Source of the DNA: a virus
DNA length: 64,000 bases
Direction: 5' to 3' (one strand)
Virus record (IMG/VR): IMGVR_UViG_3300024503_000419
Shown here: piece after piece, positions 4,878 through 63,679 of the stretch
Layout: each line of letters opens with the position of its first letter
Position numbering within the stretch: position 1 is the first letter of the stretch
Position numbers and translations under genes: made by a program
The notes under the pieces: model-generated
Seen by the model: only the letters and a program-made list of their open reading frames with translations
The model's database searches: none
Told to the model about the DNA's origin: nothing

Positions 4878-6050
4878 ATGGCTGATTTTTCATTAACTAC
4901 GCTCTTCGTAGTACCAGTAGGGCAAACTGCGCTCCCTAGCTCTGGATCTACGCAAGACCTAACAGCAGGTCAGGTGGGTATCTACCGTGCTGACTACTCT
5001 GTTGCCACAGCTGGTAACATTGCTGCTTCTCCTTATTTCTATATTGCGCAGGGCCGTACCAACACTTATCTGCAAGGCTCTAAGCGTTCTGATAAGATTA
5101 AAGGTTGTCCTTCAGGATCTGGTTGCAAAAGCAACGTAACTGAATGGTATAAAGTGAACGGTTGTCCTACACCATTGACTCAAATCACTGATGTAGTAAA
5201 CTGGAATGTACAATGTGGTGAGGTGGTAACCCTTACACTTCGTGCTCACTCTAGCTATTTAGACACTTTGTATTTTAACGGTTTCACTCGTTCAGTCACT
5301 GTAAATGCTCCTTGTTGTGAGTGTGACGGTAACCCTTGTGCTGCTGTTGATGTTCCTGCATTCATTGATGATGTAATCTATCATTTGAATTTGCAAGCTC
5401 CAGGTAACAACCCTGACAACATCACTTTGTCTGATTTCTATCAGTTCCAAAGAATTGGTAATGATGCAAACGCATTCTTGCGTATCACTGGTAAACCATT
5501 GACTAAATATGGTCAGCCTTGTGACGTTGCAGCATTTCCTTTCGAGTATGACAGAATGTGGTTCCGTACATTCGTGTACAGTGGTCCAGCAACAACTGCT
5601 GACTTCATTGTGTACGATCCTTGTAACGTTGTTGCTGATCCTGTAGTTGTACAGCGTTCTTCTTACGCCACTGGTACTTCTGCTGAGATTGCACAATTAG
5701 AAAAGAACTTCTACAGCTATCAAGCTGGTTACTTGAAGCATCTTTACAGAATGAATGGCTACAACGAGAACTTTGAATCTTGGGTGAGCGATGGTACAAC
5801 CTACACCACCTATTACATCAAGTTCAATGAGTATGACAAGTCTGTTTACAGCTGGGGCGATTATATCAAAGAAGATAGCACTGTAATCATTGCTGTTGAA
5901 AAAGATAGCGCTGCTGAAGCTGCAATTGAGGCTGTTCTTGTAGCTGGTCTTGGTGCTGTGGCTGATGAGAATGGAGTTTGTGTAACTACCACTTCTACAA
6001 CAACCACTGTATGGCCTTCTACTTCTACTACTACAACTTTGATTCCGTAA
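4878..6050 (+). CDS. Auxiliary capsid (cement/decoration) protein with a C-terminal Thr-rich tail
   Basis: 390 aa, high-expression codon bias, beta-rich, followed by a stem-loop; ends CVTTTSTTTTVWPSTSTTTTLIP; position matches the crAss auxiliary capsid gene. Confidence 0.6.
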   Translation: MADFSLTTLFVVPVGQTALPSSGSTQDLTAGQVGIYRADYSVATAGNIAASPYFYIAQGRTNTYLQGSKRSDKIKGCPSGSGCKSNVTEWYKVNGCPTPLTQITDVVNWNVQCGEVVTLTLRAHSSYLDTLYFNGFTRSVTVNAPCCECDGNPCAAVDVPAFIDDVIYHLNLQAPGNNPDNITLSDFYQFQRIGNDANAFLRITGKPLTKYGQPCDVAAFPFEYDRMWFRTFVYSGPATTADFIVYDPCNVVADPVVVQRSSYATGTSAEIAQLEKNFYSYQAGYLKHLYRMNGYNENFESWVSDGTTYTTYYIKFNEYDKSVYSWGDYIKEDSTVIIAVEKDSAAEAAIEAVLVAGLGAVADENGVCVTTTSTTTTVWPSTSTTTTLIP

Positions 6051-17866: not shown

Positions 17867-18391
17867 ATGGCACAGACAGTATTAATAGTATTAACCACAG
17901 CAGGAACTAACACAGGCCCCTTTAGCCTGTATTCAAATGTGGACGGATTTGTAACACCGTTTGAACTTGGTGTATCTAAGGCAGCTCTTGAAGCTGGGTA
18001 CACTTCGTTTCTTGTCCCTGATGGTGCAACCATAATCAGAGTGAAGTCTAATGGTGTATGTACAAACTACATAGATATTCCTTTTGGTATAACCACAACC
18101 ACCACAACATCTAGTAGTACAACCACCACTACGAGCACCACTATTTCAACCACATCCACCACCACTACAACTTATTGTCAGTCTATTGGTGCAGGAGCTG
18201 GTTGCTTCAACTGGAACTTTACAGCAGGTGGAACAGGAGCAATTGTACAATGGACAGATTGTAATGGTAACAACCAAACATCAGTGTTGAATGAAGGTGA
18301 GTCAGGAAGCGGATGTTTGTGTGATGGTCAAACACCAAATGTTCTAGAAGGTAGTTTATCTATTATAAGTCAAGTGGGTACATGTCCATAA
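17867..18391 (+). CDS. Small virion-surface protein: Ig-like domain, poly-Thr linker, Cys-rich domain
   Basis: 174 aa; N-domain is paralogous to the N-domain of the gene at 18404; C-domain resembles the C-terminus of the gene at 44214. Confidence 0.7.
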   Translation: MAQTVLIVLTTAGTNTGPFSLYSNVDGFVTPFELGVSKAALEAGYTSFLVPDGATIIRVKSNGVCTNYIDIPFGITTTTTTSSSTTTTTSTTISTTSTTTTTYCQSIGAGAGCFNWNFTAGGTGAIVQWTDCNGNNQTSVLNEGESGSGCLCDGQTPNVLEGSLSIISQVGTCP

Positions 18392-44213: not shown

Positions 44214-46931
44214 ATGAACGTACTTCCTAATATACTCCAATATGGGGGTAGTGGCACATCTGGTACTTCAGGTGAGTCAACTCCTGACTGTGTAGATAAT
44301 ACACCGATATATACCTATGTGCCTGATCCTGAACCAGTTAATGATTCAGACAAAGTACCGTTCATATCTAAACTCTTTGGCAATCATAGCCAAAATGATT
44401 CTTTTACAACCAGCCCAGTCATATGTGCTGCTAACCCTTGTCCAATTATATTGAACGCCACTTGTGTGTTCTATGAAGGACCCAATTTGATCTATACAAA
44501 AATTAACACCAACGATAATGTTCAGACAGTCATTGAGAAAATAGAAGCAGCTTTTGCCAATGGTTTGGCAGGAAGCTCTGGAACTTCTGGAACTTCTGGA
44601 ACCAGTGGGACCAGTGGTACTTCAGGTGCAGATGGAACGTTTGGTACAAGCGGTAGCTCAGGAACCAGTGGGACCAGTGGGACCAGTGGTACAAGCGCTA
44701 CGAGTGGAACTAGTGGCATAGCTGGTAGTTCTGGTACAAGCGGCACAACAGGTACTTCTGGTACCACTGGTACGAGTGGTACGAGTGCAACCAGTGGAAC
44801 ATCAGGCACAAGCGGTACAAATGGTACTGGCGGCACATCAGGCACGTCTGGTACATCAGCTACCTCAGGATCTAGTGGAACCACAGGTACAAGCGGTACA
44901 AGTGCTACAAGTGGTACGTCTGCAACAAGTGGATCAAGTGGTACATCAGGTACGTCAGCAACAGATGGTACAGGTGGTACCAGTGGTACGTCAGGTACTT
45001 CTGCCACCTCTGGTACATCAGGATCTTCTGGAACTGATGGAACAGGAGGAACTTCAGGTACAAGTGGTACGAGTGCGACTTCTGGATCTTCAGGTACTAC
45101 AGGTACAAGTGGAACAAGCGGAACTACAGGAACATCTGGCAGTAGTGGTACAAGTGGTACATCTGCCACTGATGGTACAGGAGGTTCATCAGGTACGTCA
45201 GGCACAAGTGGAACTGCTGGTACAACAGGTACATCAGGAACCAGTGGTACAGCTGGAACCAGTGGTACAGATGGTACAGCAGGTACGTCTGGTACTAGTG
45301 GCACTGCAGGAACAAGTGGCACATCAGGAACCACTGGCATAAGTGGTACTTCTGGCACTTCAGGAACCAGTGGAACAGACGGATCTGGAGGTACAAGCGG
45401 TACATCTGGTACAAGTGCAACAAGCGGCACCAGTGGTACGAGTGCTACATCAGGCACTTCTGGAACAAGTGGTACTACAGGTACATCAGGATCTTCAGGT
45501 TTGAGTGGTGATAGATTTGCTACAACATCCTCCACCACATATACAATACAAGCCCCTCCTGGTACAGGCACTATTACAGTGGGTACAGGACTGGCATACA
45601 CTCTGGGGCAATCAATCATTATAACTTATTCAGGCGATGCTTTCAAACACAATGAAGCAGTCGTTACATCATATGATCCAAACACTGGTAGCTTAAGCTT
45701 CCAAGTGACTGGACAAACTGGCTCTGGTACATATTCATCTTGGGAAGTGAACCTAGATGGTGCTACAGGTGGTAACGGTACAGATGGTACTTCTGGAACA
45801 AGTGGTACGTCTGCTACAGCAGGTACGTCTGGTACTACAGGAACTTCTGGTTCAAGTGGTAGTAGTGGTACAACAGGCACATCAGGTACTGGTGGCACAT
45901 CTGGTACAAGTGGAATAGATGGCACGTCTGGAACTACAGGCACCTCAGGCACCTCAGGAACCACTGGAACATCTGGTACAAGTGCTACATCTGGAACTTC
46001 AGGTACATCTGGTACTAATGGATCTAATGGTACATCTGGTACGTCTGGCACCACAGGTACATCTGGTAGTAGTGGAACAAGCGCTACATCAGGTACATCA
46101 GGCACTAGCGGCACTGATGGTTCAGGAGGAACCAGTGGTACGAGTGGCACTACAGGTACGAGTGGAAGTTCTGGCAGCTCTGGATCATCTGGTAGCAGTG
46201 GTACAGCTGGATCTTCAGGCACAAGCGGTACAGCAGGTAGCTCAGGAACAGATGGTAGTGGGGGAACCAGTGGAACATCTGGATCTTCTGGATCTAGTGG
46301 CAGTGCTGGTACAAGTGGTACTGACGGTAGTGGCGGAACCTCTGGCACTGCAGGAACTAGTGGATCGTCTGGGTCTTCTGGAAGCTCTGGTAGTTCAGGC
46401 ACAGCAGGCTCTAGTGGAACAAGTGGAACATCAGGTACTGATGGAACAGGAGGAACATCAGGTGTTGATGGTACTAGTGGAACTTCAGGTACAAGTGGTG
46501 TGGATGGAACATCAGGTACTTCTGGAGTTGATGGCACATCTGGTTCATCTGGAACCTCAGGAATCAACGGAACATCTGGTGTGGATGGAAGTTCAGGTAC
46601 AAGTGGATCAAGCGGTACTAGTGGAACAAGTGGTGCGTCTTCAGTGTATGTTGGTACAAGCTCAAGTGCAATCACACTACCTTTGGTAGAATGTACAACA
46701 ACCACTACTACTACCGCTTTTGTATGTGCCAACTGTAGAAATTGGGAGTATAATGGAGCAACTATTCCTGAAGGAGGTGATGTGATTCATTATTACAACT
46801 GTTATACTGGTGATCCTCAAACAATTACATTAAGCAGTGGTGACCCAACTGGTCAATTCTGTAACTGTGATTCTGTAGGAAATCCTTATGCTGATAATGG
46901 TACAACGTTGACACAAATTGGTATATGTTGA
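44214..46931 (+). CDS. Gly-Thr-Ser collagen-like fibre protein
   Basis: 905 aa; two runs of about 100 (G/A)-X-Y triplets dominated by GTS/GSS/GTT flanking a globular domain; C-terminal poly-Thr and Cys-rich domain. Confidence 0.85.
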   Translation: MNVLPNILQYGGSGTSGTSGESTPDCVDNTPIYTYVPDPEPVNDSDKVPFISKLFGNHSQNDSFTTSPVICAANPCPIILNATCVFYEGPNLIYTKINTNDNVQTVIEKIEAAFANGLAGSSGTSGTSGTSGTSGTSGADGTFGTSGSSGTSGTSGTSGTSATSGTSGIAGSSGTSGTTGTSGTTGTSGTSATSGTSGTSGTNGTGGTSGTSGTSATSGSSGTTGTSGTSATSGTSATSGSSGTSGTSATDGTGGTSGTSGTSATSGTSGSSGTDGTGGTSGTSGTSATSGSSGTTGTSGTSGTTGTSGSSGTSGTSATDGTGGSSGTSGTSGTAGTTGTSGTSGTAGTSGTDGTAGTSGTSGTAGTSGTSGTTGISGTSGTSGTSGTDGSGGTSGTSGTSATSGTSGTSATSGTSGTSGTTGTSGSSGLSGDRFATTSSTTYTIQAPPGTGTITVGTGLAYTLGQSIIITYSGDAFKHNEAVVTSYDPNTGSLSFQVTGQTGSGTYSSWEVNLDGATGGNGTDGTSGTSGTSATAGTSGTTGTSGSSGSSGTTGTSGTGGTSGTSGIDGTSGTTGTSGTSGTTGTSGTSATSGTSGTSGTNGSNGTSGTSGTTGTSGSSGTSATSGTSGTSGTDGSGGTSGTSGTTGTSGSSGSSGSSGSSGTAGSSGTSGTAGSSGTDGSGGTSGTSGSSGSSGSAGTSGTDGSGGTSGTAGTSGSSGSSGSSGSSGTAGSSGTSGTSGTDGTGGTSGVDGTSGTSGTSGVDGTSGTSGVDGTSGSSGTSGINGTSGVDGSSGTSGSSGTSGTSGASSVYVGTSSSAITLPLVECTTTTTTTAFVCANCRNWEYNGATIPEGGDVIHYYNCYTGDPQTITLSSGDPTGQFCNCDSVGNPYADNGTTLTQIGIC
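44571..45510 (+). repeat. Gly-X-Y (GTS) coding repeat, block 1
   Basis: Period-3 amino acid repeat with highly varied synonymous codons. Confidence 0.95.
45759..46640 (+). repeat. Gly-X-Y (GTS) coding repeat, block 2
   Basis: Period-3 amino acid repeat with highly varied synonymous codons. Confidence 0.95.
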
Positions 46932-50231: not shown

Positions 50232-50262
50232 TTTGTTATTCAAAATAGTTGGTTTACCTTTG
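50232..50262 (+). promoter_or_regulatory. Bacteroidota-type promoter of the GT9/sulfotransferase/PAPS operon
   Basis: TTTG (50232-50235), 19-nt spacer, TACCTTTG (50255-50262): perfect consensus. Confidence 0.85.
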
Positions 50263-50281
50263 GAGGTAAAATCAACCATAC

Positions 50282-51148
50282 ATGAATATAATATTCCAAA
50301 TTAATGGCGGTATTGGCAAGGTGATTGCTGGTACCGCCATTTGTGCTTCTATCAAGGCTAAGTATCCTGATAGTAAACTTATTGTTGTCTCTGGTTATCC
50401 AGATGTATTCTTAGGTAATAAGAATGTTGACAGAGCATACGCTTTTGGACAACAGGCTTATTTCTATAAGGAATACATTGAGAATCAAGAGATTATGGTA
50501 TTTGCACACGATCCATACTTGGAAGCAAAGCACATTAAACAAGATGAACACCTTATTGAAACATGGTGTAATTTGTACGGTTTACCAGTAACAAAGACTG
50601 TTGGAGAGCTATTTCTTACACAGAGAGAAATAGATTTCTTTAGCAAAAAATTTGTTTCTGATAAGCCTATTTTTTTGATGCAAACTAATGGTGGTGCTGA
50701 GACAGAACAGAAATACTCTTGGGCTAGAGATATTCCTAGCTATATAGTAGAGAATGTTATACATGAGTTTAGAGAGAAGTATAACATTGTTCATATAAAG
50801 AGAGAAGATCAGATAGGTTACGAAGGAACATTTGCTGTGTCTGATACCTTCAGAGCATTGATTGTTCTTATAAACCTTAGTGAAAAGAGATTGTTAATGG
50901 ATAGCTTTGGACAACATGCAGCTGCAGCTTTGAATAAACCTTCTACAGTGTTGTGGGTTGCTAACAGTCCTAAGGTGTTTGGATATGACTTACATACAAA
51001 CATTGTAGCTAACTCAGGAACAATTAGTCCAGAATTAAGAAATGCCTATCTAAGTAAGTATAATATTGGAGGTGACCCTATTGAGTTTCCTTACAACAAA
51101 GAGTCTGAAATATTTAATGTAGATGCTGTAATTAACTCCTTAAAATAA
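50282..51148 (+). CDS. GT9-like (GT-B fold, heptosyltransferase-related) glycosyltransferase
   Basis: NGGIGKVIAGT N-terminal loop; MDSFGQHAAAALNKPSTVLW corresponds to the GT9 DSG..H.AAAL..P.V.L motif. Confidence 0.7.
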   Translation: MNIIFQINGGIGKVIAGTAICASIKAKYPDSKLIVVSGYPDVFLGNKNVDRAYAFGQQAYFYKEYIENQEIMVFAHDPYLEAKHIKQDEHLIETWCNLYGLPVTKTVGELFLTQREIDFFSKKFVSDKPIFLMQTNGGAETEQKYSWARDIPSYIVENVIHEFREKYNIVHIKREDQIGYEGTFAVSDTFRALIVLINLSEKRLLMDSFGQHAAAALNKPSTVLWVANSPKVFGYDLHTNIVANSGTISPELRNAYLSKYNIGGDPIEFPYNKESEIFNVDAVINSLK

Positions 51149-51154
51149 ACCAAC

Positions 51155-51976
51155 ATGGAAAAGATATTCTATCAAAGCTCATTGCCTAGAGCAGGAAGTA
51201 CATTGTTGCAAAACATACTAGCTCAAAATCCTGATATATACGCTACACCTACAAGTGGTGTGTTAGAACTTATATTTGGTGCACGTGCTAACTATACAAA
51301 CTCAGCAGAGTTTAAAGCTCAAGATCCTGAGTTAATGAAAACAGGATGGCAAGCATTTGCTAAAGCTGGAATGGATGCATTCTACAATGCTGTTACAGAT
51401 AAAAAATATGTGATAGATAAGTCTCGTGGATGGGGTATTCACTATGATTTCTTACAGTTTGTACAAGGTGGTGAACCTAAAATCATTTGCATGGTTAGAG
51501 ACCTACGTGATGTATTTGCTTCTATGGAGAACAACTTCAGAAAGCATCCTGAGAAGCAATCAGACATTTTGGATTGGTCTAAAGGTCAAGGTACTACTGT
51601 ACCAAAGCGTATTGATATCTGGTCACAGAATCCTCCTGTAGGACTAGCTATTGAAAGACTAGCTGAGATATTTAGACTAGGTATTAATACTAAAATATTA
51701 TTCATTAAATTTGAAGACCTATGTCTCTATCCAGAAACAGAGATGACAAGGATATATCAATACCTTGGTATACCACACTACCACCATGATTTTGATAACA
51801 TTGAGCAAATTACTAAGGAGGATGATGAAGTGTATGGAGCATTTGGTGATCATGTCATTAGAACAAAGCTAGAGCCTGTTCCTTCTAGAGCAAAAGCATT
51901 GTTAGGGAAAGATGTAGTTGATTGGATATACAACAACTACAAATGGTTTTATGACTATTTTAGATATTCAAAATGA
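51155..51976 (+). CDS. PAPS-dependent sulfotransferase
   Basis: 5'-PSB loop SLPRAGSTLLQNIL, DKSR, 3'-PB motif MVRDLRDVFAS, IKFEDL. Confidence 0.9.
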   Translation: MEKIFYQSSLPRAGSTLLQNILAQNPDIYATPTSGVLELIFGARANYTNSAEFKAQDPELMKTGWQAFAKAGMDAFYNAVTDKKYVIDKSRGWGIHYDFLQFVQGGEPKIICMVRDLRDVFASMENNFRKHPEKQSDILDWSKGQGTTVPKRIDIWSQNPPVGLAIERLAEIFRLGINTKILFIKFEDLCLYPETEMTRIYQYLGIPHYHHDFDNIEQITKEDDEVYGAFGDHVIRTKLEPVPSRAKALLGKDVVDWIYNNYKWFYDYFRYSK

Positions 51977-52416
51977 TTATAGTGTTATTTGGACAGCCTA
52001 ATTGTGGAAAGTCCACATTGGCTGATGCGCTTATAAAGGAAAGGTTTACTATTGTAAACATTGATGGAGACAAGCTCAGAGAGATATTTGTGAACAAAGA
52101 TTACAGCAGAGAGGGGAGAATCAAGAATCTGAACAGGGCTAGTGATATTGCTACGTTCATGAGCACTATTGGGGATGACATCATCCTATCTCTCGTATAT
52201 CCATATAAGGAAGCTAGAGACTACCTCAACAGCTTGTGTGACTCTGTCTATTGGGTTTATTTGACATATGATGAGCCTAGAGGCAGGGAATCATTTCATG
52301 TAAAGGATTTTGAAGAGCCTGGAGATGATGAACGTGTTCTTCGTCTGAACACTTCTACAACATCCATAGAGGACTGTATAACTAAAATAATGACACATGC
52401 AAAACTTCTTGGCTAG
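51973..52416 (+). CDS. cysC: Adenylyl-sulfate (APS) kinase
   Basis: P-loop GQPNCGKST, IDGDKLRE, DYSREGRIKNL, FEEP motifs of CysC. Confidence 0.8.
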   Translation: MIIVLFGQPNCGKSTLADALIKERFTIVNIDGDKLREIFVNKDYSREGRIKNLNRASDIATFMSTIGDDIILSLVYPYKEARDYLNSLCDSVYWVYLTYDEPRGRESFHVKDFEEPGDDERVLRLNTSTTSIEDCITKIMTHAKLLG

Positions 52417-52795
52417 ATCAGCAGGACCCACTTCTTCCAATGACAAGAAATATTCTATGTTTATAGGAAGATGGCAACCCTGGCACGCTGGACACAGATG
52501 GTTAATTGACCAGAGACTCAATGAAGGAAAGAATGTCCTCCTCTGTATAAGAGATGTAGAACCAGATGAGAAGAATCCTTGGACCGCACATCAAGTGATG
52601 TTAAACTTATTCGATGAACTTAAAGACTTGGTTGAATCAGGAAGAGTTAGGGTTATTACTATACCTGATATTGAATCTATTAATATTGGTAGGGGTGTTG
52701 GTTATGATGTCATAGAACACGTACCCCCTCAGGAGATACATGACATATCTGCTACAAAAATCCGTGAGCAAATGAAAGTAGAAGGTAAGCTATGA
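52397..52795 (+). CDS. HxGH-family nucleotidyltransferase, candidate minimal ATP sulfurylase
   Basis: FIGRWQPWHAGH and ISATKIRE motifs; lies between the APS kinase and a DUF2061-like gene. Confidence 0.65.
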   Translation: MQNFLARSAGPTSSNDKKYSMFIGRWQPWHAGHRWLIDQRLNEGKNVLLCIRDVEPDEKNPWTAHQVMLNLFDELKDLVESGRVRVITIPDIESINIGRGVGYDVIEHVPPQEIHDISATKIREQMKVEGKL

Positions 52796-53004
52796 CTGTA
52801 AGCAAGAAAAGACATATAGCCAAAACAATCAGCTACAGGATTGTCAGCACACTCATTGGGTTTGGTATTATGTGGCTAGTGACAGGAAGTGTGAAAATAG
52901 GAGCTGCATTTGGTGTAGCTGAGCTAGTGTACAAGCCTATACAATATTACCTACATGAGCGTATTTGGTATAAATGGATTAGATATGGACTGAAGAAAGA
53001 CTAA
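52792..53004 (+). CDS. DUF2061-like small membrane protein
   Basis: AKTISYRIVST...YYLHERIW signature; this family is often found beside sulfate-activation genes. Confidence 0.75.
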   Translation: MTVSKKRHIAKTISYRIVSTLIGFGIMWLVTGSVKIGAAFGVAELVYKPIQYYLHERIWYKWIRYGLKKD

Positions 53005-53794
53005 GCATTGCTTTGTATTCTTCTAGCCCTTTCTCCAAATTGTATTTAGCTTCCCAACCAGGCATAAACAAATCAGCCTTGGTAAACATCTGATAGTTGT
53101 CAGGCATTTCAAACTTGAACTTGTATTTGAATGGTATATCCATTATCTCTAGAACATTCTCAAACGTTCTGGGCTCTCCTGTTCCTACATCAAACCATCC
53201 TCCTTTGAATTCATTGTAATGCTGCCAGGCATACAAATTTGCATCTACAACATCCTTTATATACACAAAGTCTCTCACAGGTTGTCCTGGAAAGAGCATC
53301 ACTTCTTCTCCAAGCTGATGTTTCTTATAAGATTGATGAGCAATAGAAGCCATGTTTCCTTTGTGCATTTCTCCTGGTCCATACACATTGAAATAACGTA
53401 GGGCCACTCCCTTGCTCTTTATTACAAACTCCTCTCCCAGAAACTTACTCCATGCATAGAGTGTTTCAGGACTTCCCTTTGTTCCATATATAGCAGCTGA
53501 TGAACTATATATAATGGGAATGCCTCTGTGCTGACACCAGCTAGCAATGATGTTAGTGGAATGTACATTGAGCATAAGCATCTCATTGATGTCCTTGTTC
53601 TGTGTATCTGAACAAGCACCTACATGAAACACCACTTCTGGGTTCATGTCTACAAGATATTCTATAAGTCTATCCTGCCATCTGGCTCTATCAAATATCC
53701 ATTTCTCAAGACCCTTTACAGTGTGCCCCTGTCTTTCAAGTTCTGTCTGTAAAGCTTTGCCAATAAATCCGTTGTTACCTGTTACGCAGACCAT
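52979..53794 (-). CDS. hldD: ADP-L-glycero-D-manno-heptose 6-epimerase
   Basis: VTGNNGFIG, FHVGACSDT, YSSSAAIYG, YAWSK, LRYFNVYGPGEMHKGNMAS, RDFVY and YQMFTKAD closely parallel HldD/RfaD; start placed at the ATG at 53794. Confidence 0.88.
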   Translation of the reverse strand: MVCVTGNNGFIGKALQTELERQGHTVKGLEKWIFDRARWQDRLIEYLVDMNPEVVFHVGACSDTQNKDINEMLMLNVHSTNIIASWCQHRGIPIIYSSSAAIYGTKGSPETLYAWSKFLGEEFVIKSKGVALRYFNVYGPGEMHKGNMASIAHQSYKKHQLGEEVMLFPGQPVRDFVYIKDVVDANLYAWQHYNEFKGGWFDVGTGEPRTFENVLEIMDIPFKYKFKFEMPDNYQMFTKADLFMPGWEAKYNLEKGLEEYKAMLSLSSVHI

Positions 53795-54435
53795 ATGTGT
53801 ATTATTATTTCTGTATAATATGCTAGGAATTCTTCTGACCAAACTCCTGCTGTGATGTCCACACCATCCAAGGAATACACCTTGAAATTTACATCATGTA
53901 AATATTCATCTCTAAACTTCTTGAATTTTTGTTTCAGAAGAAGATTGCTCAAATGCCATTCTCCAGCTATCTTCTTCATATTGCTCAGTATCCATGGTTT
54001 GTTTTCTAGGGTGAATATGTCATACTCCCCACCCTCACAATCCATCTTAAGGAAGTCTATCCTACCAATATTGTAATCTTCAATCACCTGCTTAAAGGTG
54101 GTGCAATACGTAGATTCCCCCTGATCATCAAAGACAAACTCACCATCAAACTTACCTACATGTCCTGATATAGCTTTGTTGATACATGTAACAGGAGCGT
54201 GTCTTGTATTATACACCAGTGTCTTAAACTCTGAATAACTAGGCTCAAAACAGAACACGTGCTTTGGATGCTTATCTAGGATGGAATAGGTGAATATACC
54301 TATACTTGCTCCAATATCAAACACCACATCACCCTCTTCTACGGTGAAGCATTTCTCATATATCCTATCTACAAATGTTTCTCTCTTTACTGTCTCTATA
54401 AATATGGCGTCTGATGTTCCCCAATTAAATTCCAT
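53782..54435 (-). CDS. FkbM-family SAM-dependent methyltransferase
   Basis: VVFDIGASIGIF, VFCFEP, IDFLKMDCEGGEYDIF. Confidence 0.88.
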   Translation of the reverse strand: MEFNWGTSDAIFIETVKRETFVDRIYEKCFTVEEGDVVFDIGASIGIFTYSILDKHPKHVFCFEPSYSEFKTLVYNTRHAPVTCINKAISGHVGKFDGEFVFDDQGESTYCTTFKQVIEDYNIGRIDFLKMDCEGGEYDIFTLENKPWILSNMKKIAGEWHLSNLLLKQKFKKFRDEYLHDVNFKVYSLDGVDITAGVWSEEFLAYYTEIIIHIWSA

Positions 54436-57400
54436 GATTGTATTTTTTTAATTACGTCTTCAGATTTAATAGATGTCTGACATTCCCATTGTCTGTCTGT
54501 TCCTTTATGCACAGGACACCAGTTCCAATCTCCTGCATCAAATCTGTATTCAGCTTTGTTCCAGCATCCATGACATACATTCTCATTAGTAATTCTAATA
54601 CAGCTAAACTCATGGTCAGCAGCTGTAAAGTTACTAATCATTACCACTTGTTTATTCAGAGCCCAAGCTAACCAGCTTAGCCCACTGGATAGTCCTATAA
54701 AGAACTCACTGTGATGGATAACATTCATGGTGTTCTCCATAGATGTATCTTCAAGCTGTTCACAATTGTCAAAAGGATTCTTCTCCTTGGACACATTAAC
54801 TATCTTATATCCATTCTCATGTAAGAAGTTGATGGTGAGCTGCCAGTCTTCCTTCTGCCAAAACTTACATCCAGCCGTTGAATTAGTGGCTATTGTAACA
54901 TATCTACCATATGAATTGTTACCAGGTGTAAAGGCTAAACGTGGTCTAATCTCTTGAAAATCAAGACCTAAGATGTTGGTTGCTGTCTGTTGGAGGGGAA
55001 TAGTATTACACAAAGCTGGCTCCTTATTACCATCATAGAACCAACCCACACTGTACATACCAAGGATGTTACCTACACCTGTTCCTGGTTCTACAAACTC
55101 AAGCTCTGGATAGACACTCTCAAATAGGAAGTTCTTAAATGTGCTCACTGTTACATGGCAATTGTGCTTCCTCTTGAACTCAAGTACATATGGCATCCAT
55201 GCAATTGTGTCTCCTAGTGATTTGCTATCCATAGCTATATAGACACGCTGGCCCTCATAATTGAGTGTATACTCATAGTATATACTTTCATCCTTCCACA
55301 CCTTGATGGTCCATTTGGTAAACCATCTCCTGTTGAGCTTCACCCAGTGATTCACCTTTATCTTGTTCTCATAGTGACACACACCCTGCTCATCATAAAA
55401 TCTGACAGTGAAGGTGCTTTTGGAATTACCTGTTATCTCTAGGAATGGCTCGTGTATAAATGTGTGGGTGATATTAATCAGTTCTTTGTCAGGCTGTATG
55501 GGTCTATTCATCACCTCCTGATACAGATCAATATGCTTCTGTGCGAAATCAAGCTTCTGTCCTTCAGGAATATCGTAGCTCACATCTGTATCTAACAGCT
55601 GGGTGAGCTGTTCTTTCATCTTTTCAGGCTTCAGATCTGTAATATACTGAGTGAACATGTCTCCATACTGAGGAAGATTTCTTGCCAGGATTGGCAGTCC
55701 ATATCCTATAGCTTCTCTAATCACCAGTGGATTGCATTCAAATGTACTGTTAAACAGGAACACATCTGCAGCTGCCATAAACCTACCCACATCATCACGC
55801 TCTCCCCATACATGTACATTAGGTGGTATGTCCTTCATAATGGGTTCCCAGTAGTGCTGGAAGTTACCAGCCTGATTACCTACAAAGTGGAATTGTACAT
55901 CTGGCATTTGTCTAGCCAGCTCTACAGCTTCTCCTTGGTTCTTACCAGCAGTCCATAGTCCTACATTAAGCACATGTTTACCAGGTCCTAGATCTATGGG
56001 CTCAGATTCTTTCTTCACGATAGGAAACTCAATCACCTCCTTTCTAGAAGGCATATTAGCAAACGTCTTTAGATGGTGTGGTGTACAGAACGCATATGCA
56101 TCTGGATGATAGCGCTTCTCTAAGTCTGGCTTGAACACAATGTTGTGACATGTTTCAATCATCCTCCAGGTTCTATTTGGACTGTACAGCGCTTGTCTCA
56201 CCTCTTCTGGCCAGTTGTTCCAGCCATCTTCCACCATCTCATCCACATGCACTATATCTACAGCATGTCTTTTGATGATATCAATCACCTCCATCTTATT
56301 CTCTCCCAAGGTGTAGAAGTGGTGGGCTATTTCCTTTATCTGATTCTTCTGGACAACAAAGTGATCACTGTGGTTGGAATACTCCACAACAATAATCTTA
56401 GATTTGGAATAGGCCAACAGATCTGCTATTCTCTCTAAAAGGAAGGCAGGCATTCCACCTGTCGATAGATGTGGTGCCAGGAATAATATCTTAAGCTGAT
56501 TCTTCTGGCGCTCTAACATTCTGTACATAGTGACAGCATCCTTTTCTCCGTGATAGAATAGTAACTGGTCTACATCTGCAGGCACAGCTACAAAATGTGC
56601 TAGGTGCTGCTTCTTAGTTCTGAATGTGACATTATTCACTGTGTTCAAGGATCCATTCATGTATATGTATGGTAGTCCATCTAATGCCTTGTACTTCCAC
56701 AGAAGCACGTTAGCTATAGTTTCCTCATGATAGGGAGCATAGTATTGTGGATTCTGTAACACCTTGGGATGGTTACACATCCACCACCAACTGTCAAGGA
56801 ATTCTTGACAGTATTCACCAGCTACAAAATATCCTGTTTGTCTGTATTTATCTCTGATGTATTGATCTACACCAAACAGCTCACAAGCTGGATGTTCAAG
56901 AGTAGTGGATAGGTCATCTCTACTATCAGCCCCACCTCTTCCATTGCTGATCATCCATTCATATATTCCCTCTGTAAAATACGGATAGGCACTCTTCACT
57001 GGGAAATAGTCAAATATTCTGTCTACATACTTGGTAGCCACACTATCACTATCCACATAGGCCACTGTTTTAGCATGCTTTAACGCTTCTTTAACAATTA
57101 GTGGGCGCTGGATGAGGATGTTGTAAATGTCTGGATTAGCTCTGTCTATATACTTCTGCTGAGGAAGATCCTTGGTTTTACAATCCCAACGGAATGTAGC
57201 AGCTCCCTTTATATCCACATCTGAGTTGAGCATATAAACCATAACAGGTAGACTGCTAAAGGTTCTAAGAGAATCTACGCACGCCTGCACAGTGTCCTTA
57301 TAGCTCTCTGTAGCATATAAGACATATGCTTTTTCCCATCTAATGTCCTGATTTACATAGTATCCATACCACTGGTTGTCATATAGCTTCTCCAGTCCTG

Positions 57401-57848
57401 GGTAACGCTCTAGCATCACCTCTGGTGTTAGATCTGCCTGGTGGTGGGTTTCATACTCATTTCCATACTCTGCTCCATCCTGAGCCATCATATAGGGCAC
57501 AGCTACAAGAAACCTCTTGTCCATCAGGTCAAAGTCTGTAAGCAGGTTTTTAGCTGTGCCTGAGGGTAGGTGTTCTAGAATATCCCCTAAGATGATAAAG
57601 TCATAGGGTCTAACATCAAAGGTGACAATATCCCCTACATAAACATTATCATATTTAGCTCTCAGATTGAACTGATCTACATATGGAGCCCATATCTCTA
57701 CAGCATCCATCCTATATCCTAAATTCCTTAGCAAATCAGAATATGTTCCCTGTCCAGGACCTACATCTAGAATGCGTGTTGATAGGGGAATATTGTCTAT
57801 AAACCACTGCTTTATTTCAGGCTTGAAGTAGGTGTAACTGTTTGGCAT
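54396..57848 (-). CDS. Four-domain enzyme: class I methyltransferase, GT-A glycosyltransferase, GT4 glycosyltransferase and Aah/TibC-type protein O-heptosyltransferase
   Basis: ILDVGPGQG/GDILEH; AYVDSD (DxD); FLAPHLSTGGMP...ECNPLVIREA; SLGDTIAWMPY...FIGLSSGLSWLAWA...CHGCW...WCPVHKGTDRQWEC. Start placed at the ATG at 57848, downstream of the promoter. Confidence 0.85.
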   Translation of the reverse strand: MPNSYTYFKPEIKQWFIDNIPLSTRILDVGPGQGTYSDLLRNLGYRMDAVEIWAPYVDQFNLRAKYDNVYVGDIVTFDVRPYDFIILGDILEHLPSGTAKNLLTDFDLMDKRFLVAVPYMMAQDGAEYGNEYETHHQADLTPEVMLERYPGLEKLYDNQWYGYYVNQDIRWEKAYVLYATESYKDTVQACVDSLRTFSSLPVMVYMLNSDVDIKGAATFRWDCKTKDLPQQKYIDRANPDIYNILIQRPLIVKEALKHAKTVAYVDSDSVATKYVDRIFDYFPVKSAYPYFTEGIYEWMISNGRGGADSRDDLSTTLEHPACELFGVDQYIRDKYRQTGYFVAGEYCQEFLDSWWWMCNHPKVLQNPQYYAPYHEETIANVLLWKYKALDGLPYIYMNGSLNTVNNVTFRTKKQHLAHFVAVPADVDQLLFYHGEKDAVTMYRMLERQKNQLKILFLAPHLSTGGMPAFLLERIADLLAYSKSKIIVVEYSNHSDHFVVQKNQIKEIAHHFYTLGENKMEVIDIIKRHAVDIVHVDEMVEDGWNNWPEEVRQALYSPNRTWRMIETCHNIVFKPDLEKRYHPDAYAFCTPHHLKTFANMPSRKEVIEFPIVKKESEPIDLGPGKHVLNVGLWTAGKNQGEAVELARQMPDVQFHFVGNQAGNFQHYWEPIMKDIPPNVHVWGERDDVGRFMAAADVFLFNSTFECNPLVIREAIGYGLPILARNLPQYGDMFTQYITDLKPEKMKEQLTQLLDTDVSYDIPEGQKLDFAQKHIDLYQEVMNRPIQPDKELINITHTFIHEPFLEITGNSKSTFTVRFYDEQGVCHYENKIKVNHWVKLNRRWFTKWTIKVWKDESIYYEYTLNYEGQRVYIAMDSKSLGDTIAWMPYVLEFKRKHNCHVTVSTFKNFLFESVYPELEFVEPGTGVGNILGMYSVGWFYDGNKEPALCNTIPLQQTATNILGLDFQEIRPRLAFTPGNNSYGRYVTIATNSTAGCKFWQKEDWQLTINFLHENGYKIVNVSKEKNPFDNCEQLEDTSMENTMNVIHHSEFFIGLSSGLSWLAWALNKQVVMISNFTAADHEFSCIRITNENVCHGCWNKAEYRFDAGDWNWCPVHKGTDRQWECQTSIKSEDVIKKIQSWNLIGEHQTPYL

Positions 57849-57868
57849 AACTGATTGGCTTTCTGTTA

Positions 57869-57900
57869 CAAAGATAGAAAAAAGATTTGGTAGTTTCAAA
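57869..57900 (-). promoter_or_regulatory. Bacteroidota-type promoter driving the glycosyltransferase-FkbM-hldD operon
   Basis: Minus strand: TTTG (57900-57897), 20-nt spacer, TATCTTTG (57876-57869): perfect consensus. Confidence 0.85.
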
Positions 57901-57917
57901 TAAATTACATAGATTTG
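57886..57917 (+). promoter_or_regulatory. Bacteroidota-type promoter driving cupin-hldC-hldA
   Basis: TTTG (57886-57889), 20-nt spacer, TAGATTTG (57910-57917): perfect consensus; overlaps the divergent promoter. Confidence 0.85.
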
Positions 57918-57953
57918 CCCCACAAGTGGAGTGTATCCACTTTATGCTATATT

Positions 57954-58301
57954 ATGCACGAACTACATAAAGTTGAGAAGGGTTGGGGTCACGAACTCTG
58001 GATCCATAACTCCCCAGAATACTGCGGAAAACTGCTGGTTTTCAAGGCTGGCAAGAAGTTCTCAATGCACTTCCACAAGATAAAGCAGGAGAGCTGGTAT
58101 GTAAGCAAAGGGTCCTTCCAATATACATGGGTGGACATGTCTACAGGCACCCTCTATACAGACTATCTGAAGGAAGGAGATGCTCTAACCATTATGCCCT
58201 ACCACCCTCACCAGCTGGAAGCTCTAGAAGATGGCATCATATTTGAGGTGAGTACACAACACTTTGATGAAGATAGCTACAGACTATGGAAGGGGGACTA
58301 A
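57954..58301 (+). CDS. Cupin-fold sugar(-phosphate) isomerase-like protein
   Basis: VEKGWGHE, SMHFHKIKQESW, PYHPHQL and FEVST cupin metal motifs; start placed at the ATG at 57954. Confidence 0.8.
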   Translation: MHELHKVEKGWGHELWIHNSPEYCGKLLVFKAGKKFSMHFHKIKQESWYVSKGSFQYTWVDMSTGTLYTDYLKEGDALTIMPYHPHQLEALEDGIIFEVSTQHFDEDSYRLWKGD

Positions 58302-58696
58302 GGGTATGGGTGAATGGAGCATTTGATGTCCTGCATATAGGGCATATTCAACTCCTTAAAAGAGCTAAAGAGTTTGGTAGTGTGAGAGTGGGTGTTGATA
58401 GTGACGCACGTGTTGCAGAATTAAAAGGTGATAGTAGACCATTTAACAAGCTGTCTGACAGAATAGATTTCCTGAAGAGCATTAGGTATGTGGATGAGAT
58501 AGTATCATATGATTCTGAGGAAGAGCTCACCAACCAAATCAAACTTTATGAACCAGACATCATGGTGATAGGATCTGACTACATGGGAAAAAGAATAGTG
58601 GGGGCTGAATATATAACACAGATAGTATTCTTTGACAGAATAGAACATAAATCAACTACATCAATATTAGGGTATGAAGCTGGTGGTAATAGGTGA
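58286..58696 (+). CDS. hldC: D-glycero-beta-D-manno-heptose 1-phosphate adenylyltransferase (RfaE/HldE domain II)
   Basis: NGAFDVLHIGH, GVDSDARV..LKGDSRPFN, GSDY. Confidence 0.82.
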   Translation: MEGGLRVWVNGAFDVLHIGHIQLLKRAKEFGSVRVGVDSDARVAELKGDSRPFNKLSDRIDFLKSIRYVDEIVSYDSEEELTNQIKLYEPDIMVIGSDYMGKRIVGAEYITQIVFFDRIEHKSTTSILGYEAGGNR

Positions 58697-59414
58697 TGTC
58701 TGCAAGGATGTCTTCATCTATGGAGACTGTAAACGCTTAAGTCCAGAAGCACCTGTACCTGTATTTAATCCAGTGGAAACAATAGAGAACTCAGGAATGG
58801 CTGGTAACGTGGTAGCCAATCTAAGTGCTATCAACCCCAACCTGCAGATAAATTTCCATCACAACTTTGAGAACATTACCAAAACCAGGTATGTAGATAA
58901 GAAGACCAATCACCTTTTCCTAAGAGTGGACGATGAGCCAAAGGTGAATAGAATATTCCTCACAGCTCAGCTTATTGAGGATGTAGAAACTGCAGATGCT
59001 GTGATTGTGAGTGACTATGACAAGGGATATCTAACAGAAGATGACCTGCAATATATAGCTGTTAAAGCTAAGTGGTCCATCTTAGACAGCAAGAAGCATT
59101 TAAAACCACACACCATATCAAACTATTCATTCATCAAACTGAATGAATCTGAATACAATAAAAACAAACAGTCTCTAATTTACATGAGAGACAAAGTGAT
59201 AGTGACACTTAGTTCCAAAGGAGCAATGCATAAAGATGTTACATACAGCTCCCCAAGTCCAAAAGAAACTATAGATGTAAGTGGTGCAGGAGATACGTTC
59301 GTTGCAGCATTTACAATTAAATACTTGGAAACCAAAGACATATCTACGTCTATTGAATATGCCAATCTTATGTCATCTATTGTGGTGGGTAAGAGAGGTG
59401 TTGTAACCCCATAA
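58674..59414 (+). CDS. hldA: D-glycero-D-manno-heptose 7-phosphate kinase (RfaE/HldE domain I, PfkB family)
   Basis: IGDVCKDVFIYG..KRLSPEAPVPV, GMAGNV..NL, VSDYDKG, DVSGAGDTF. Confidence 0.88.
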   Translation: MKLVVIGDVCKDVFIYGDCKRLSPEAPVPVFNPVETIENSGMAGNVVANLSAINPNLQINFHHNFENITKTRYVDKKTNHLFLRVDDEPKVNRIFLTAQLIEDVETADAVIVSDYDKGYLTEDDLQYIAVKAKWSILDSKKHLKPHTISNYSFIKLNESEYNKNKQSLIYMRDKVIVTLSSKGAMHKDVTYSSPSPKETIDVSGAGDTFVAAFTIKYLETKDISTSIEYANLMSSIVVGKRGVVTP

Positions 59415-60596: not shown

Positions 60597-60725
60597 ATGG
60601 AAAAATTGATTGAGCTCTTAAAGAGTCTGTTCAGCAAGGGTGGCCTTGTTGAGAAGGTTAAAACCATCAAACAATTAGACAAAGAAGTTAAGAAAATAAT
60701 CCCTGCTAAAAAAAAGAAGAAATGA
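60597..60725 (+). CDS. Small basic protein, 42 aa (not in the ORF track)
   Basis: MEKLIELLKSLFSKGGLVEKVKTIKQLDKEVKKIIPAKKKKK*; ATGA overlap with the endolysin. Confidence 0.55.
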   Translation: MEKLIELLKSLFSKGGLVEKVKTIKQLDKEVKKIIPAKKKKK

Positions 60726-61321
60726 ACCTAGAGAAACTGAAAGGACATATACCAGATGATGTGATTGCACAAATCCCTGAGGTGGGAGAGAAGTTTCAAA
60801 TCAATTCTCCTCTCAGACTAGCCCATTTCCTTGCACAGTGTGGACATGAGAGTGGTGGGTTTAAATTCAAATCAGAGAACCTCAACTACTCAGCTGAAAT
60901 CCTCAGAAAGGTGTTCCCTAAATACTTCCCAGACATTGTTGTAGCTAAGCAATACGAGCGTAAGCCAGAAGCTATTGCTAGCAGAGTGTACGGAGGGCGT
61001 ATGGGTAATGGTCCTGAGGCTTCAAAAGAGGGGTTCAAGTACAAGGGTCGTGGCTTCATCCAACTCACAGGGAAGCAGAACTACACTGCATTTGATGCTA
61101 CAGTGCCTGAAGATATACTAGCTAATCCAGACTTGGTAGCCACTAAATACCCCCTACTTTCAGCAGCCTGGTTCTGGAATAGCAGGAAGCTGAACAGCAT
61201 AGCTGATCAGGGAGCAACGGATGAAGTGGTTACCAAGATTACCAAGCTGGTAAACGGTGGCACCATAGGACTAGCAGATAGGATTAAACACTTCAAAGAA
61301 TATCATAAACTGTTAGGATAA
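60722..61321 (+). CDS. Endolysin, glycoside hydrolase family 19
   Basis: RLAHFLAQCGHESGGF, ENLNYSA, YKGRGFIQLTGKQNY, SAAWFW, ITKLVNGG. Confidence 0.92.
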   Translation: MNLEKLKGHIPDDVIAQIPEVGEKFQINSPLRLAHFLAQCGHESGGFKFKSENLNYSAEILRKVFPKYFPDIVVAKQYERKPEAIASRVYGGRMGNGPEASKEGFKYKGRGFIQLTGKQNYTAFDATVPEDILANPDLVATKYPLLSAAWFWNSRKLNSIADQGATDEVVTKITKLVNGGTIGLADRIKHFKEYHKLLG

Positions 61322-63031: not shown

Positions 63032-63679
63032 ATGGCCATACCATCCCGTCAGATAGGCTGGGGCACACAGGACAACCTGCTGTGGCAGATTGCAAAGCAA
63101 CTGGAGGGAGCCTCTTGTCAGCTCTGTACGTTGAATGATAACATAGCCACTATTACAGGCACCTCTGGTACAAGTGGGACTAGTGGTGTTAGCGGATCTA
63201 ATGGTACATCAGGTACCAGTGGGCTTTCTAGTTTTAAATACGGATCTTTCTATAGCACTGTGGATCAATCACTTGCAAAGGATGCTATAGGACCTTTTAC
63301 ATTTAACAACACAGACCTAAGTAATGGTGTTAGTGTGGTTTCTAGTTCAAGAATTACACTGGCTAACGCTGGTAAATACAACATCCAGTTTAGTGCACAG
63401 TTTCATCACATAGGTGGTGGAGGATCTGGGGAAACAGTGAACATATGGCTTGCTAAAAACGGCTCAGATATAGCTGACTCAAACACAAGACTCACTATCA
63501 CCTCTAGTACTAAGTATAGTGTGGCAGCCTGGAACTTCTTTGTAGATGCTTCAGGAGGAGACTATTATGAAATCATCTGGTCTACAGATAATGCCAATAT
63601 AAAAATAGAACATGAGGCTGCTGGTGTGCATCCTGCTATACCATCAATAATTTTAACAGTCAATCAAATAGGAATATAA
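63032..63679 (+). CDS. Short fibre/decoration protein: anchor module, GTS linker, C1q/BclA-CTD-like head
   Basis: GTSGTSGTSGVSGSNGTSGTSG linker; YGSFY...ITLANAGKYNIQFSAQF...GDYYEIIWS jelly-roll pattern. Confidence 0.7.
   Translation: MAIPSRQIGWGTQDNLLWQIAKQLEGASCQLCTLNDNIATITGTSGTSGTSGVSGSNGTSGTSGLSSFKYGSFYSTVDQSLAKDAIGPFTFNNTDLSNGVSVVSSSRITLANAGKYNIQFSAQFHHIGGGGSGETVNIWLAKNGSDIADSNTRLTITSSTKYSVAAWNFFVDASGGDYYEIIWSTDNANIKIEHEAAGVHPAIPSIILTVNQIGI

Follow-up and report, generated by a model that had tools for sequence, protein, structure and literature searches.

Why does a phage carry genes for heptose synthesis, glycosyl transfer, methylation and sulfation between its tail fibre genes and its endolysin gene? 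Such an island lies at 50282-59414 in the IMG/VR virus record IMGVR_UViG_3300024503_000419, of which a stretch of 64,000 nucleotides was analysed as a whole (hereafter, the window). An initial annotation had read the island as a system that coats the virion with heptose-initiated, methylated and sulfated glycans. The gene content that it listed is borne out, as every gene class is present at the expected place within 50282-59414 by open reading frame (ORF) listing, hidden Markov model (HMM) scans and fold matches. A cupin (57954-58301) and a DUF2061 protein (52792-53004) are additions to that list. We think it fairly probable that the island is a phage-encoded system for cytoplasmic protein O-glycosylation, and that it acts mainly on the collagen-like (Gly-Ser/Thr-Ser/Thr)n tail fibre of the phage itself. 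This reading is drawn wholly from sequence, predicted folds and comparative context.

A TibC-type domain in a four-domain transferase

The enzyme at the centre of this reading is a 1150-residue fusion protein encoded on the minus strand (54396-57848), in which a class-I S-adenosylmethionine (SAM) methyltransferase, a GT-A glycosyltransferase, a GT4 glycosyltransferase and a TibC/Aah-type O-heptosyltransferase follow one another. Translation probably starts at the Met at 57848 and not at the GTG at 57923, because the alignments with relatives begin at residue 24-26 of the longer ORF. The methyltransferase domain (residues 1-150; 57399-57848, minus strand) matches PF13489 and PF08241 and carries an invariant DVGPGxG motif. 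The GT-A domain (residues ~160-460; 56469-57371, minus strand) is undetected by Pfam and is recognized from a structure model and an invariant D266-S-D268. AlphaFold predicts residues 160-460 with a predicted local distance difference test score (pLDDT) of 82, and Foldseek matches the model to the retaining GT-A enzymes UGGT (GT24) and blood-group GTA/GTB (GT6) at E~1e-7. The GT4 domain (GT-B, retaining; residues ~455-790; 55479-56486, minus strand) matches PF13692 and PF00534, has an invariant E704-x7-E712, and also matches WaaG (2IV7) and IagA/BgsA. The TibC/Aah-type domain (residues ~790-1150; 54399-55481, minus strand) completes the protein. The catalytic motifs of all four domains are kept in 14 full-length relatives that share 57-84% identity.

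The last domain scores 259.6 bits against TIGR04414 (cut-off 200), covering model positions 26-372 of 374, and aligns with TibC (4RAP) at E=1e-45. In TibC, Asp110 is the catalytic base, Thr226, Lys230 and Trp305 bind phosphate/sugar, and four cysteines bind iron (PMC4358343). The first four of these residues correspond to Asp880, Thr991, Lys995 and Trp1059 of the phage domain, and the cysteines of the TibC iron finger (Cys339/342/358/370) are matched as well, with the spacing C-x2-C-x15-C-x11-C kept. Asp880, Thr991, Lys995 and Trp1059, together with Cys1092/1095/1111/1123, are invariant in the 14 relatives and across four phage lineages. At the level of sequence, score and catalytic core make this domain a true member of the TibC/Aah family.

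One further position bears on the sugar donor. Pro300 of TibC enforces D,D-heptose selectivity, and Ser294 of AAH lets that enzyme accept ADP-L,D-heptose (PMC4358343). The phage domain has Ser at the Pro300 position, as AAH does with Ser294, and the tolerance of ADP-L,D-heptose that would go with it fits the presence of an HldD gene in the island.

A collagen-like fibre gene as the conserved neighbour

Convergent with the fusion gene is a gene for a 905-residue tail fibre (44214-46931, plus strand; PHROG tail-fibre and collagen-like matches) with two proline-free collagen-like blocks. The blocks hold 106 and 98 Gly/Ala-X-Y triplets, in which the X and Y positions are 83-88% Ser/Thr and Pro is absent.

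Searching with a profile built on the TibC-type domains of four phage lineages, we retrieved at least 595 IMG/VR contigs. We treated a locus as informative when it had at least 5 kb of downstream sequence (n=51), and an ORF as collagen-like when its X/Y positions were at least 70% Ser/Thr. A collagen-like Gly-Ser/Thr-Ser/Thr (GTS-type) ORF lies downstream in 41 of the 51 loci, at a median distance of 1.9 kb, and is convergent with the TibC-type gene in 40 of these 41, which is the arrangement found in the window. The upstream counterpart occurs in 2/68. When the TibC sequences are clustered, 24 of 27 clusters are positive; these comprise 16/17 clusters that share lineage markers and 8/10 that do not (non-crAss-like). 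As a caveat on the linkage, a collagen-like ORF is also present in 18 of 80 loci of the same lineage that are centred on the major capsid protein (MCP) gene. Given the conserved linkage of TibC-type and GTS-type fibre genes, the 905-residue fibre is the probable substrate.

The pairing is seen in its minimal form in one relative (L008), in which the transferase gene sits directly beside the GTS-type fibre gene and nothing else is added. The cultured Microcystis phage Mel-JY01 has such a pair too, as does an uncultured huge phage of 735 kb (LR756501). In the huge phage (locus L160, LR756501.1, 8095-16068), a 738-residue TibC ORF follows a 1140-residue ORF and a 695-residue GTS-type collagen-like ORF. 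In a related 636-kb phage (LR756504), the TibC-like gene (389 residues) stands alone, and Ser/Thr-rich ORFs are absent up to 15 kb away. In Mel-JY01 (locus L103, PP395634.1, 1-3052 and 9150-9990), a plus-strand ORF with a 447-residue Gly-Ser/Thr-Ser/Thr block adjoins a 1226-residue FkbM...TibC fusion, the gene of which carries the annotation FkbM. The Mel-JY01 record puts a minus-strand coding sequence (739-2298) over the repeat, and the repeat gene may therefore be annotated on the wrong strand.

The initial annotation had singled out the co-occurrence of the island with Ser/Thr-rich virion genes as the comparison to make, and would have counted an equal frequency of the island in phages that lack such genes against its reading; the comparison gave no such equality. 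The two are linked in many phage lineages, and four TibC-negative relatives are without such tracts: in Lbo-JY46, phi17:2, Fpv1 and csAssE-Sib, not one ORF reached 60% Ser/Thr over 30 residues. The four scanned TibC-positive sequences from the lineage have three to seven Ser/Thr-tract ORFs each.

The association extends to bacterial and archaeal genome records, where a GTS-repeat ORF lies within 2.5 kb of a TibC-like gene in 21 of 34 informative loci. These loci come from metagenome-assembled genomes (MAGs) and isolates, and some are possibly phage contigs; 19 of the 27 with a GC content of at least 0.40 are positive. The more distant flanks of the genome loci hold seven GTS-repeat ORFs in 333 kb. 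The bacterial partners that were examined are small and begin with a signal peptide or a lipobox. Genomes of Methylococcales, Arenicellales, Polaromonas and Burkholderiaceae have the TibC-like gene next to genes for small proteins that consist largely of (Gly-Thr-Ser)n or (Gly-Ser-Ser)n repeats; examples among loci L370-L405 are L385 (11234-11863), L392 (11157-12053) and L393 (11196-11909), all on the minus strand. The bacterial loci may represent a version of the phage enzyme-substrate pair.

These partners also bear on whether the island might hypermodify phage DNA with heptose glycans. Precedent for such a role comes from a preprint that shows phage clusters adding mono- or di-heptose to 5-hydroxymethylcytosine (5hmC), sometimes near structural genes (bioRxiv 10.1101/2023.12.21.572611). 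However, the transferase is a TibC-type protein enzyme and not T4 beta-GT-like, and secreted repeat proteins are the partners of its bacterial homologues. In addition, five near-complete relatives have no gene of the thymidylate-synthase/dCMP-hydroxymethylase family, and a Tet/JBP search of relatives gave no match, though the control genomes were silent too. We thus regard DNA modification as highly improbable and return to glycosylation of the fibre, to which other Ser/Thr-rich proteins may be added as acceptors.

Other candidate acceptor proteins

Extreme Ser/Thr tracts in virion proteins were part of the initial annotation and are confirmed here: in addition to the fibre with its 204 triplets, poly-Thr/Ser tracts occur in four other ORFs (4878-6050, 12074-17854, 17867-18391 and 63032-63679). 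The last of these encodes a 215-residue protein (plus strand; phrog_30509, collagen-like minor tail) with a short GTS collagen-like stretch, and is a possible second substrate. Its Collagen and BclA_C matches are sub-threshold (BclA C-terminal domain, E=0.008). Its homologues in relatives have 190-633 residues, and of the 16 relatives retrieved first, almost all have one close to the transferase.

Possible further substrates are a homologue of the muzzle protein (12074-17854) and a 174-residue poly-Thr/Ser protein (17867-18391), both on the plus strand. The ~440 C-terminal residues of the muzzle homologue (16400-17854) alternate poly-Thr linkers with small Cys-rich domains. The 174-residue protein repeats the design of the muzzle tail, and the relatives have similar cassettes of different sizes. 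Similar tracts also occur in the relatives G007, G001 and G002. Modification of the muzzle, capsid-tail and 174-residue poly-Thr proteins is possible. Thus, of the virion-wide glycocalyx first proposed, the part that concerns (Gly-Ser/Thr-Ser/Thr)n fibres has a comparative signal behind it, and its extension to the capsid and muzzle is extrapolation.

Possible heptose supply

Three genes of the island resemble those for ADP-heptose synthesis, and for each of them a heptose-pathway model is the top match. The HldA-like heptose-7-phosphate kinase of the PfkB family (58674-59414, plus strand) matches TIGR02198 with 125 bits (cut-off 345) as well as PF00294. The HldC-like heptose-1-phosphate adenylyltransferase (58286-58696, plus strand) matches TIGR02199 with 99 bits (cut-off 181.5) and phrog_7878 at E=2e-38. 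The HldD-like ADP-glycero-manno-heptose 6-epimerase (52979-53842, minus strand) matches TIGR02197 with 179 bits (cut-off 274.6), and the runner-up family, GalE, scores 42 bits. The HldD-like protein is 43-45% identical to the HldD of relatives, in which the gene is on the opposite strand, and the neighbouring genes are 55-90% identical. The low identity and the change of strand indicate that it was probably acquired separately or replaced (a xenologue).

Upstream of HldC is a gene for a metal-binding cupin (57954-58301, plus strand), which has weak matches to PMI, lyxose isomerase and Cupin_2 and shows an HxH..E...H set of metal ligands. Against PDB sequences it finds generic cupins only (oxalate decarboxylase). 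The gene is present in every relative that has HldA, HldC and HldD and in none of those that do not. Because of this strict co-occurrence, the cupin is a candidate for a non-orthologous sedoheptulose-7-phosphate isomerase replacing GmhA.

The initial annotation supposed that the phage provides its own heptose because its host has none. This rationale is unsupported on two grounds. In whole-genome checks made on near-complete relatives, the transferase is present and HldA nowhere to be found in G007 (terminal repeats, 100% complete), nor in G003 and G002. Furthermore, 80 of 151 sampled Bacteroidota genomes have a bona fide HldD, and so do bins of Sediminibacterium, Chitinophaga and Saprospirales; for the first two genera, these MAGs are the very bins that hold the closest TibC contigs. 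The heptose genes of the phage therefore look like an optional booster of supply.

Candidate genes for chain extension, methylation and sulfation

The first gene of the island encodes a 288-residue glycosyltransferase with a GT-B, GT9-like (heptosyltransferase-like) fold (50282-51148, plus strand). It has no Pfam match and is assigned from its AlphaFold model (pLDDT 80.5), for which the top Foldseek matches are the GT9 structure 3TOV (E=4e-11), WaaF (1PSW), WaaC and then TibC. The product is a candidate chain-extending transferase. Its gene accompanies the sulfotransferase gene in relatives.

That sulfotransferase (51155-51976, plus strand) is of the type that uses 3'-phosphoadenosine-5'-phosphosulfate (PAPS), and is most like the carbohydrate sulfotransferase NoeE (E=7e-9). 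It scores 63.2 bits against PF13469 (cut-off 27) and 46.3 bits against PF00685 (cut-off 22). Its N-terminal PRAGST resembles the 5'-phosphosulfate-binding motif of sulfotransferases. Next is a short, 147-residue P-loop kinase (51973-52416, plus strand) like those that phosphorylate adenosine 5'-phosphosulfate (APS). It matches PF01583 with 41.9 bits (cut-off 21.1) over residues 2-91 only, and all NCBIfam APS-kinase models fall under their cut-offs. Its P-loop and IDGDKLR (DGD) motif align with solved APS kinases, and the C-terminal third of the usual CysC is missing.

A 132-residue HxGH nucleotidyltransferase (52397-52795, plus strand; PF01467) follows, for which nicotinamide mononucleotide adenylyltransferase (NMNAT) models are the closest (E=2e-9) and the PDB match is the NMNAT 1EJ2. 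That this enzyme might act as an ATP sulfurylase (sulfate adenylyltransferase) is a guess. Of the 230 positions of a PHROG family, phrog_10255, the first 85 match the APS-kinase-like gene and the last 96 the nucleotidyltransferase, so the two are probably one fused protein in some phages. In the window the two genes share 20 nt, read in different frames; several relatives have them far apart. The DUF2061 gene at the end of this series (52792-53004, plus strand; PF09834, 64.8 bits) co-occurs with the nucleotidyltransferase in seven loci (L001, L003, L004, L007, L010, L014 and L016).

The second methyltransferase of the island, besides the domain within the fusion, belongs to the FkbM family of SAM methyltransferases (53782-54435, minus strand; TIGR01444 61 bits, cut-off 37.7; PF05050). 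FkbM is a separate gene in L006 and stands beside or inside the transferase gene in other lineages.

Several of these enzymes have relatives that act on the cell surface, and the island could instead serve to remodel the host envelope (lipopolysaccharide (LPS) core, capsule or surface proteins), so as to block superinfection or lessen re-adsorption to debris, its place beside the fibre being incidental. In structure, the 288-residue enzyme comes nearest to WaaF and WaaC, which are LPS heptosyltransferases, the GT4 domain is like WaaG and glycolipid glucosyltransferases, and NoeE acts on a lipo-oligosaccharide. In addition, with HldD common in Bacteroidota, heptose-containing host glycans are plausible. 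TibC/Aah, however, is a family of protein-Ser heptosyltransferases. Envelope remodelling also leaves unexplained why a convergent GTS-type fibre gene recurs across unrelated phages, and why the bacterial homologues pair with secreted GTS-repeat proteins. We judge it quite unlikely, though less so for the GT9-fold enzyme and the sulfotransferase, and prefer to see the same enzymes as building a glycan on the fibre.

Transcription units and cellular location

The island genes, flanked by the fibre genes and by a GH19 endolysin (60722-61321), form three transcription units. Unit 1 (50282-53004, plus strand) comprises the GT9-fold protein, the sulfotransferase, the APS-kinase-like protein, the HxGH nucleotidyltransferase and DUF2061. 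Unit 2 (57848-52979, minus strand) comprises the fusion protein, the FkbM methyltransferase and the HldD-like epimerase, and unit 3 (57954-59414, plus strand) the cupin, HldC and HldA.

The Bacteroidota promoter motif TTTG-N17-21-TAnnTTTG occurs eight times in the window (2.4 expected), and three of the occurrences are placed exactly at the three operon starts. One (50232-50262, plus strand) heads unit 1, 20 nt 5' of the ATG at 50282. The others form a divergent pair, with one motif on the transferase-gene side (57869-57900, minus strand) and one on the side of the cupin operon (57886-57917, plus strand). A scan of the window for sigma-70 promoters showed no enrichment (27 seen, 32 expected). 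The host-type promoters of the initial annotation are thus upheld for the Bacteroidota motif and not for sigma-70. Operons under host-type motifs would also suit enzymes that act on the host envelope.

None of the island enzymes has membrane segments, and the small DUF2061 protein is borderline in hydropathy. The enzymes should therefore work in the cytoplasm, which fits the cytoplasmic action initially proposed. Moreover, no flippase, undecaprenyl-phosphate transferase or membrane-anchored enzyme was seen among the island proteins, a further point that argues against envelope remodelling.

Lineage, host and variability of the island

A near-identity DNA search of GenBank phages gave no match. 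At least 594 IMG/VR contigs encode the capsid protein (1409-2962) at 95-99% identity, so the lineage is abundant; the only GenBank phage match of this protein is to Leptolyngbya phage Lbo-JY46 (26%). The muzzle homologue (1926 residues) matches the 'Muzzle protein' of csAssE-Sib and structural proteins of Cellulophaga phages phi17:2 and phi4:1 and the Flavobacterium FpV phages, as well as Lbo-JY46, at 25-35% identity. The phage had been called a member of Crassvirales. Given the muzzle homologue, crAss-like is a fair label for its architecture, and membership of the order does not follow, as the related records are not assigned to Crassvirales. At the position of the giant cargo/RNA-polymerase protein of crAss-type phages is a 4013-residue ORF (26689-38730, plus strand) with no PHROG match.

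The promoter motifs, together with the labels of the bins that hold the closest TibC-type contigs, suggest a Bacteroidota host. These bins are labelled Sediminibacterium, Chitinophaga and Lutibacter, binning being weak evidence of a host.

At least 18 riverine metagenomes contain the island in near-identical form. All relatives with a near-identical capsid have the transferase, in the form of the four-domain fusion, a 744-residue GT4+TibC protein, or separate genes. The heptose genes occur in some relatives only (L001, L004, L005, L007, L016 and L164), and the sulfation set in other relatives. In those of the examined relatives that have accessory genes, these adjoin the transferase gene, and most of them lie in the interval up to the fibre genes. 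Within the lineage, the transferase is 55-84% identical and shifts in domain architecture, whereas the capsid is 95-99% identical; the fibre/glycosylation region is thus the hypervariable part of a conserved phage.

Riverine metatranscriptome assemblies contain 81-90% of the sampled words of the island, in contigs that show neither transcription nor strand. In these assemblies the flanks form long contigs with a depth of 17-30, and 50.3-57.9 kb is fragmented at a depth of 3-13, with loose contig ends at 50283, 52674 and 58036/58408. The fragmentation and diverging contig ends fit a strain-variable cassette and suggest co-occurring strains with different cassettes.

This variability raises the question of whether the island is one system at all. 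The fusion could glycosylate the fibre while the sulfation genes, the heptose genes or both are general auxiliary metabolic genes that act on host sulfur or the host envelope. The accessory sets do come and go independently in relatives with near-identical capsids, sulfotransferase genes appear in parts of the phage and virome literature on auxiliary metabolic genes, and the nucleotidyltransferase is NMNAT-like and not recognisably an ATP sulfurylase. The accessory genes of relatives nevertheless sit beside the transferase gene, and TibC fusions are joined by this sulfation set also in L187 and L191, from a phage group that has no marker genes in common with the lineage of the window. The sulfotransferase is also of the carbohydrate (NoeE) type. 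Separate modules are in our view unlikely, and we take the accessory genes to be attached to the glycosylation of the fibre.

Proposed pathway and points against it

On this reading, the TibC/Aah-type domain would move heptose from ADP-heptose to Ser, and perhaps Thr, of the fibre chain while this is still unassembled. The GT4 and GT-A domains of the fusion and the separate GT9-fold enzyme would then attach further sugars, and the two methyltransferases and the NoeE-like sulfotransferase would probably tailor the glycan. The cupin, HldA, HldC and HldD could raise or secure the level of ADP-L,D-heptose, as an optional accessory module and not a necessity. The APS-kinase-like enzyme, possibly with the HxGH nucleotidyltransferase, could supply PAPS to the sulfotransferase. 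We infer the identity of the sugar, the acceptor and the order of the steps, and, only from the adjacency of the genes, sulfation and methylation of the glycan. The phage may benefit through stabilisation of the fibre, shielding from proteases or altered adhesion.

Several observations weigh against this pathway. The first concern the transferase itself. In TibC, Arg286 contacts the adenine and is needed for activity, and a beta-hairpin thumb (Phe265/Val266) builds the dodecamer (PMC4358343). In the phage domain Arg286 is replaced by Thr1040, and of the four phage lineages set side by side, a single one has an Arg nearby. In the alignment with 4RAP the thumb is ~10 residues shorter and the Phe265 position is deleted; the thumb region is short in three of the four lineages. 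With Arg286 and the thumb lost, neither the donor specificity nor the dodecameric mechanism of TibC can be transferred to the phage enzyme, and a TibC-type ring is unlikely to form. Moreover, the known substrates of TibC/Aah are beta-helical autotransporter passengers, and the phage neighbour is a proline-free collagen-like repeat.

The linkage to the fibre gene has its own weaknesses. In the window, 7.4 kb separate the fibre gene from the transferase gene, and the spike gene and accessory genes lie in this interval. Many of the positive loci come from one broad phage lineage, and the background of 0/34 twenty-kb windows, against which a Fisher test was made, is crude. When we started from short IMG/VR chunks with a GTS-type ORF, only 5 of 68 had a TibC gene, so that GTS-type fibres are not constantly accompanied by TibC; the count is a lower bound, since the chunks are not centred.

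The remaining objections concern the supply routes. The APS kinase, HldA, HldC and HldD all fall under their equivalog cut-offs. The island proteins include no GmhA (SIS fold), no GmhB and no match to the ATP-sulfurylase families (Sat, CysDN). Five relatives with the heptose genes likewise have no PF13580 and no TIGR01656-type match; four of the five in the GmhA search are at least 93% complete, and the control was positive in 11 genomes.

Comparison with known systems

Phage virion glycosylation and protein heptosylation by TibC/Aah are both known already; we found no description of a phage system of this kind. Literature searches returned no paper joining heptosyltransferase, TibC and collagen-like, none of relevance for heptosyltransferase with crAss-like, and none on the phages Lbo-JY46 and Mel-JY01. 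What this window contributes is the four-domain fusion, the heptose module in which a cupin may stand for GmhA, the sulfation module adjoining the transferase, and the data on HldD in hosts. A bolder reading, which we hold tentatively and which is doubtful as a whole, is that a widespread, undescribed pair of TibC-type enzyme and (Gly-Ser/Thr-Ser/Thr)n protein exists in phages and bacteria, and that here it has become a self-sufficient pathway to a methylated, sulfated heptose O-glycan, with the cupin as isomerase and the NMNAT-like enzyme as ATP sulfurylase.

If glycosylation of the fibre is correct, sugar-coated tail fibres would be common among environmental phages, given a TibC-type domain in at least 595 IMG/VR contigs, and would affect host recognition, particle stability and the sticking of phages to surfaces. 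For the TibC/Aah family, collagen-like Gly-Ser/Thr-Ser/Thr repeats would be a new class of substrate in addition to autotransporters, and a bacteriophage particle bearing a sulfated glycan, should the sulfation hold, would be without precedent. The island also offers candidates for two enzyme replacements, the cupin for GmhA and the small HxGH enzyme for ATP sulfurylase, and the fusion is a possible tool for making defined heptose-based glycoproteins in E. coli. Since the cultured Microcystis phage Mel-JY01 has the same pairing, the idea is directly testable.

Among known systems, the closest is TibC/Aah itself (BAHT, TIGR04414, 4RAP/4RB4), which the phage domain resembles in a score over the cut-off, the catalytic Asp, the Thr/Lys/Trp binders and the four-Cys finger. 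Like TibC/Aah, it should act in the cytoplasm and modify many Ser of a repetitive surface protein before assembly or export. Unlike TibC/Aah, it is phage-encoded, is fused to three other catalytic domains and lacks the thumb and Arg286. There is no autotransporter gene at the island, and the conserved neighbour is the collagen-like G-S/T-S/T gene. The heptose genes resemble the ADP-L-glycero-beta-D-manno-heptose pathway (GmhA, HldE or HldA+HldC, GmhB, HldD) in their HldA-, HldC- and HldD-like members and differ from it in having neither an SIS-type GmhA, for which the cupin may stand in, nor GmhB.

Phage DNA glycan clusters likewise combine sugar-nucleotide synthesis with glycosyltransferases and use heptose; they consist of a kinase/phosphatase, a cytidylyltransferase and a GT-B transferase, with T4 beta-GT-like or GT-A enzymes acting on 5hmC (bioRxiv 10.1101/2023.12.21.572611). 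Unlike the island, they need a 5hmC pathway, which was not found in the five near-complete relatives.

Virion proteins are the targets in mycobacteriophages, whose glycosyltransferases of the Che8/Corndog type reportedly adjoin structural genes and glycosylate the virion, in work by Freeman et al. from 2023. The likeness lies in phage glycosyltransferases encoded by structural genes, with O-glycosylation of the phage's own virion proteins in the cytoplasm (proposed or shown). The mycobacteriophage enzymes belong to other families, with no heptose pathway, TibC-type enzyme or sulfation genes; their targets are the C-termini of the capsid and tail-tube proteins, and their host is Gram-positive-like.

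In bacteria, Bacillus BclA and the serine-rich-repeat adhesins (GtfA/B with GT8/GT2 extenders) are surface filaments that are O-glycosylated in the cytoplasm by dedicated enzymes. Although these systems are bacterial and not viral, and start from another initiating enzyme and another sugar, they share with the island a Ser/Thr-rich or collagen-like filament and GT4 and GT-A genes placed beside the gene of the substrate.

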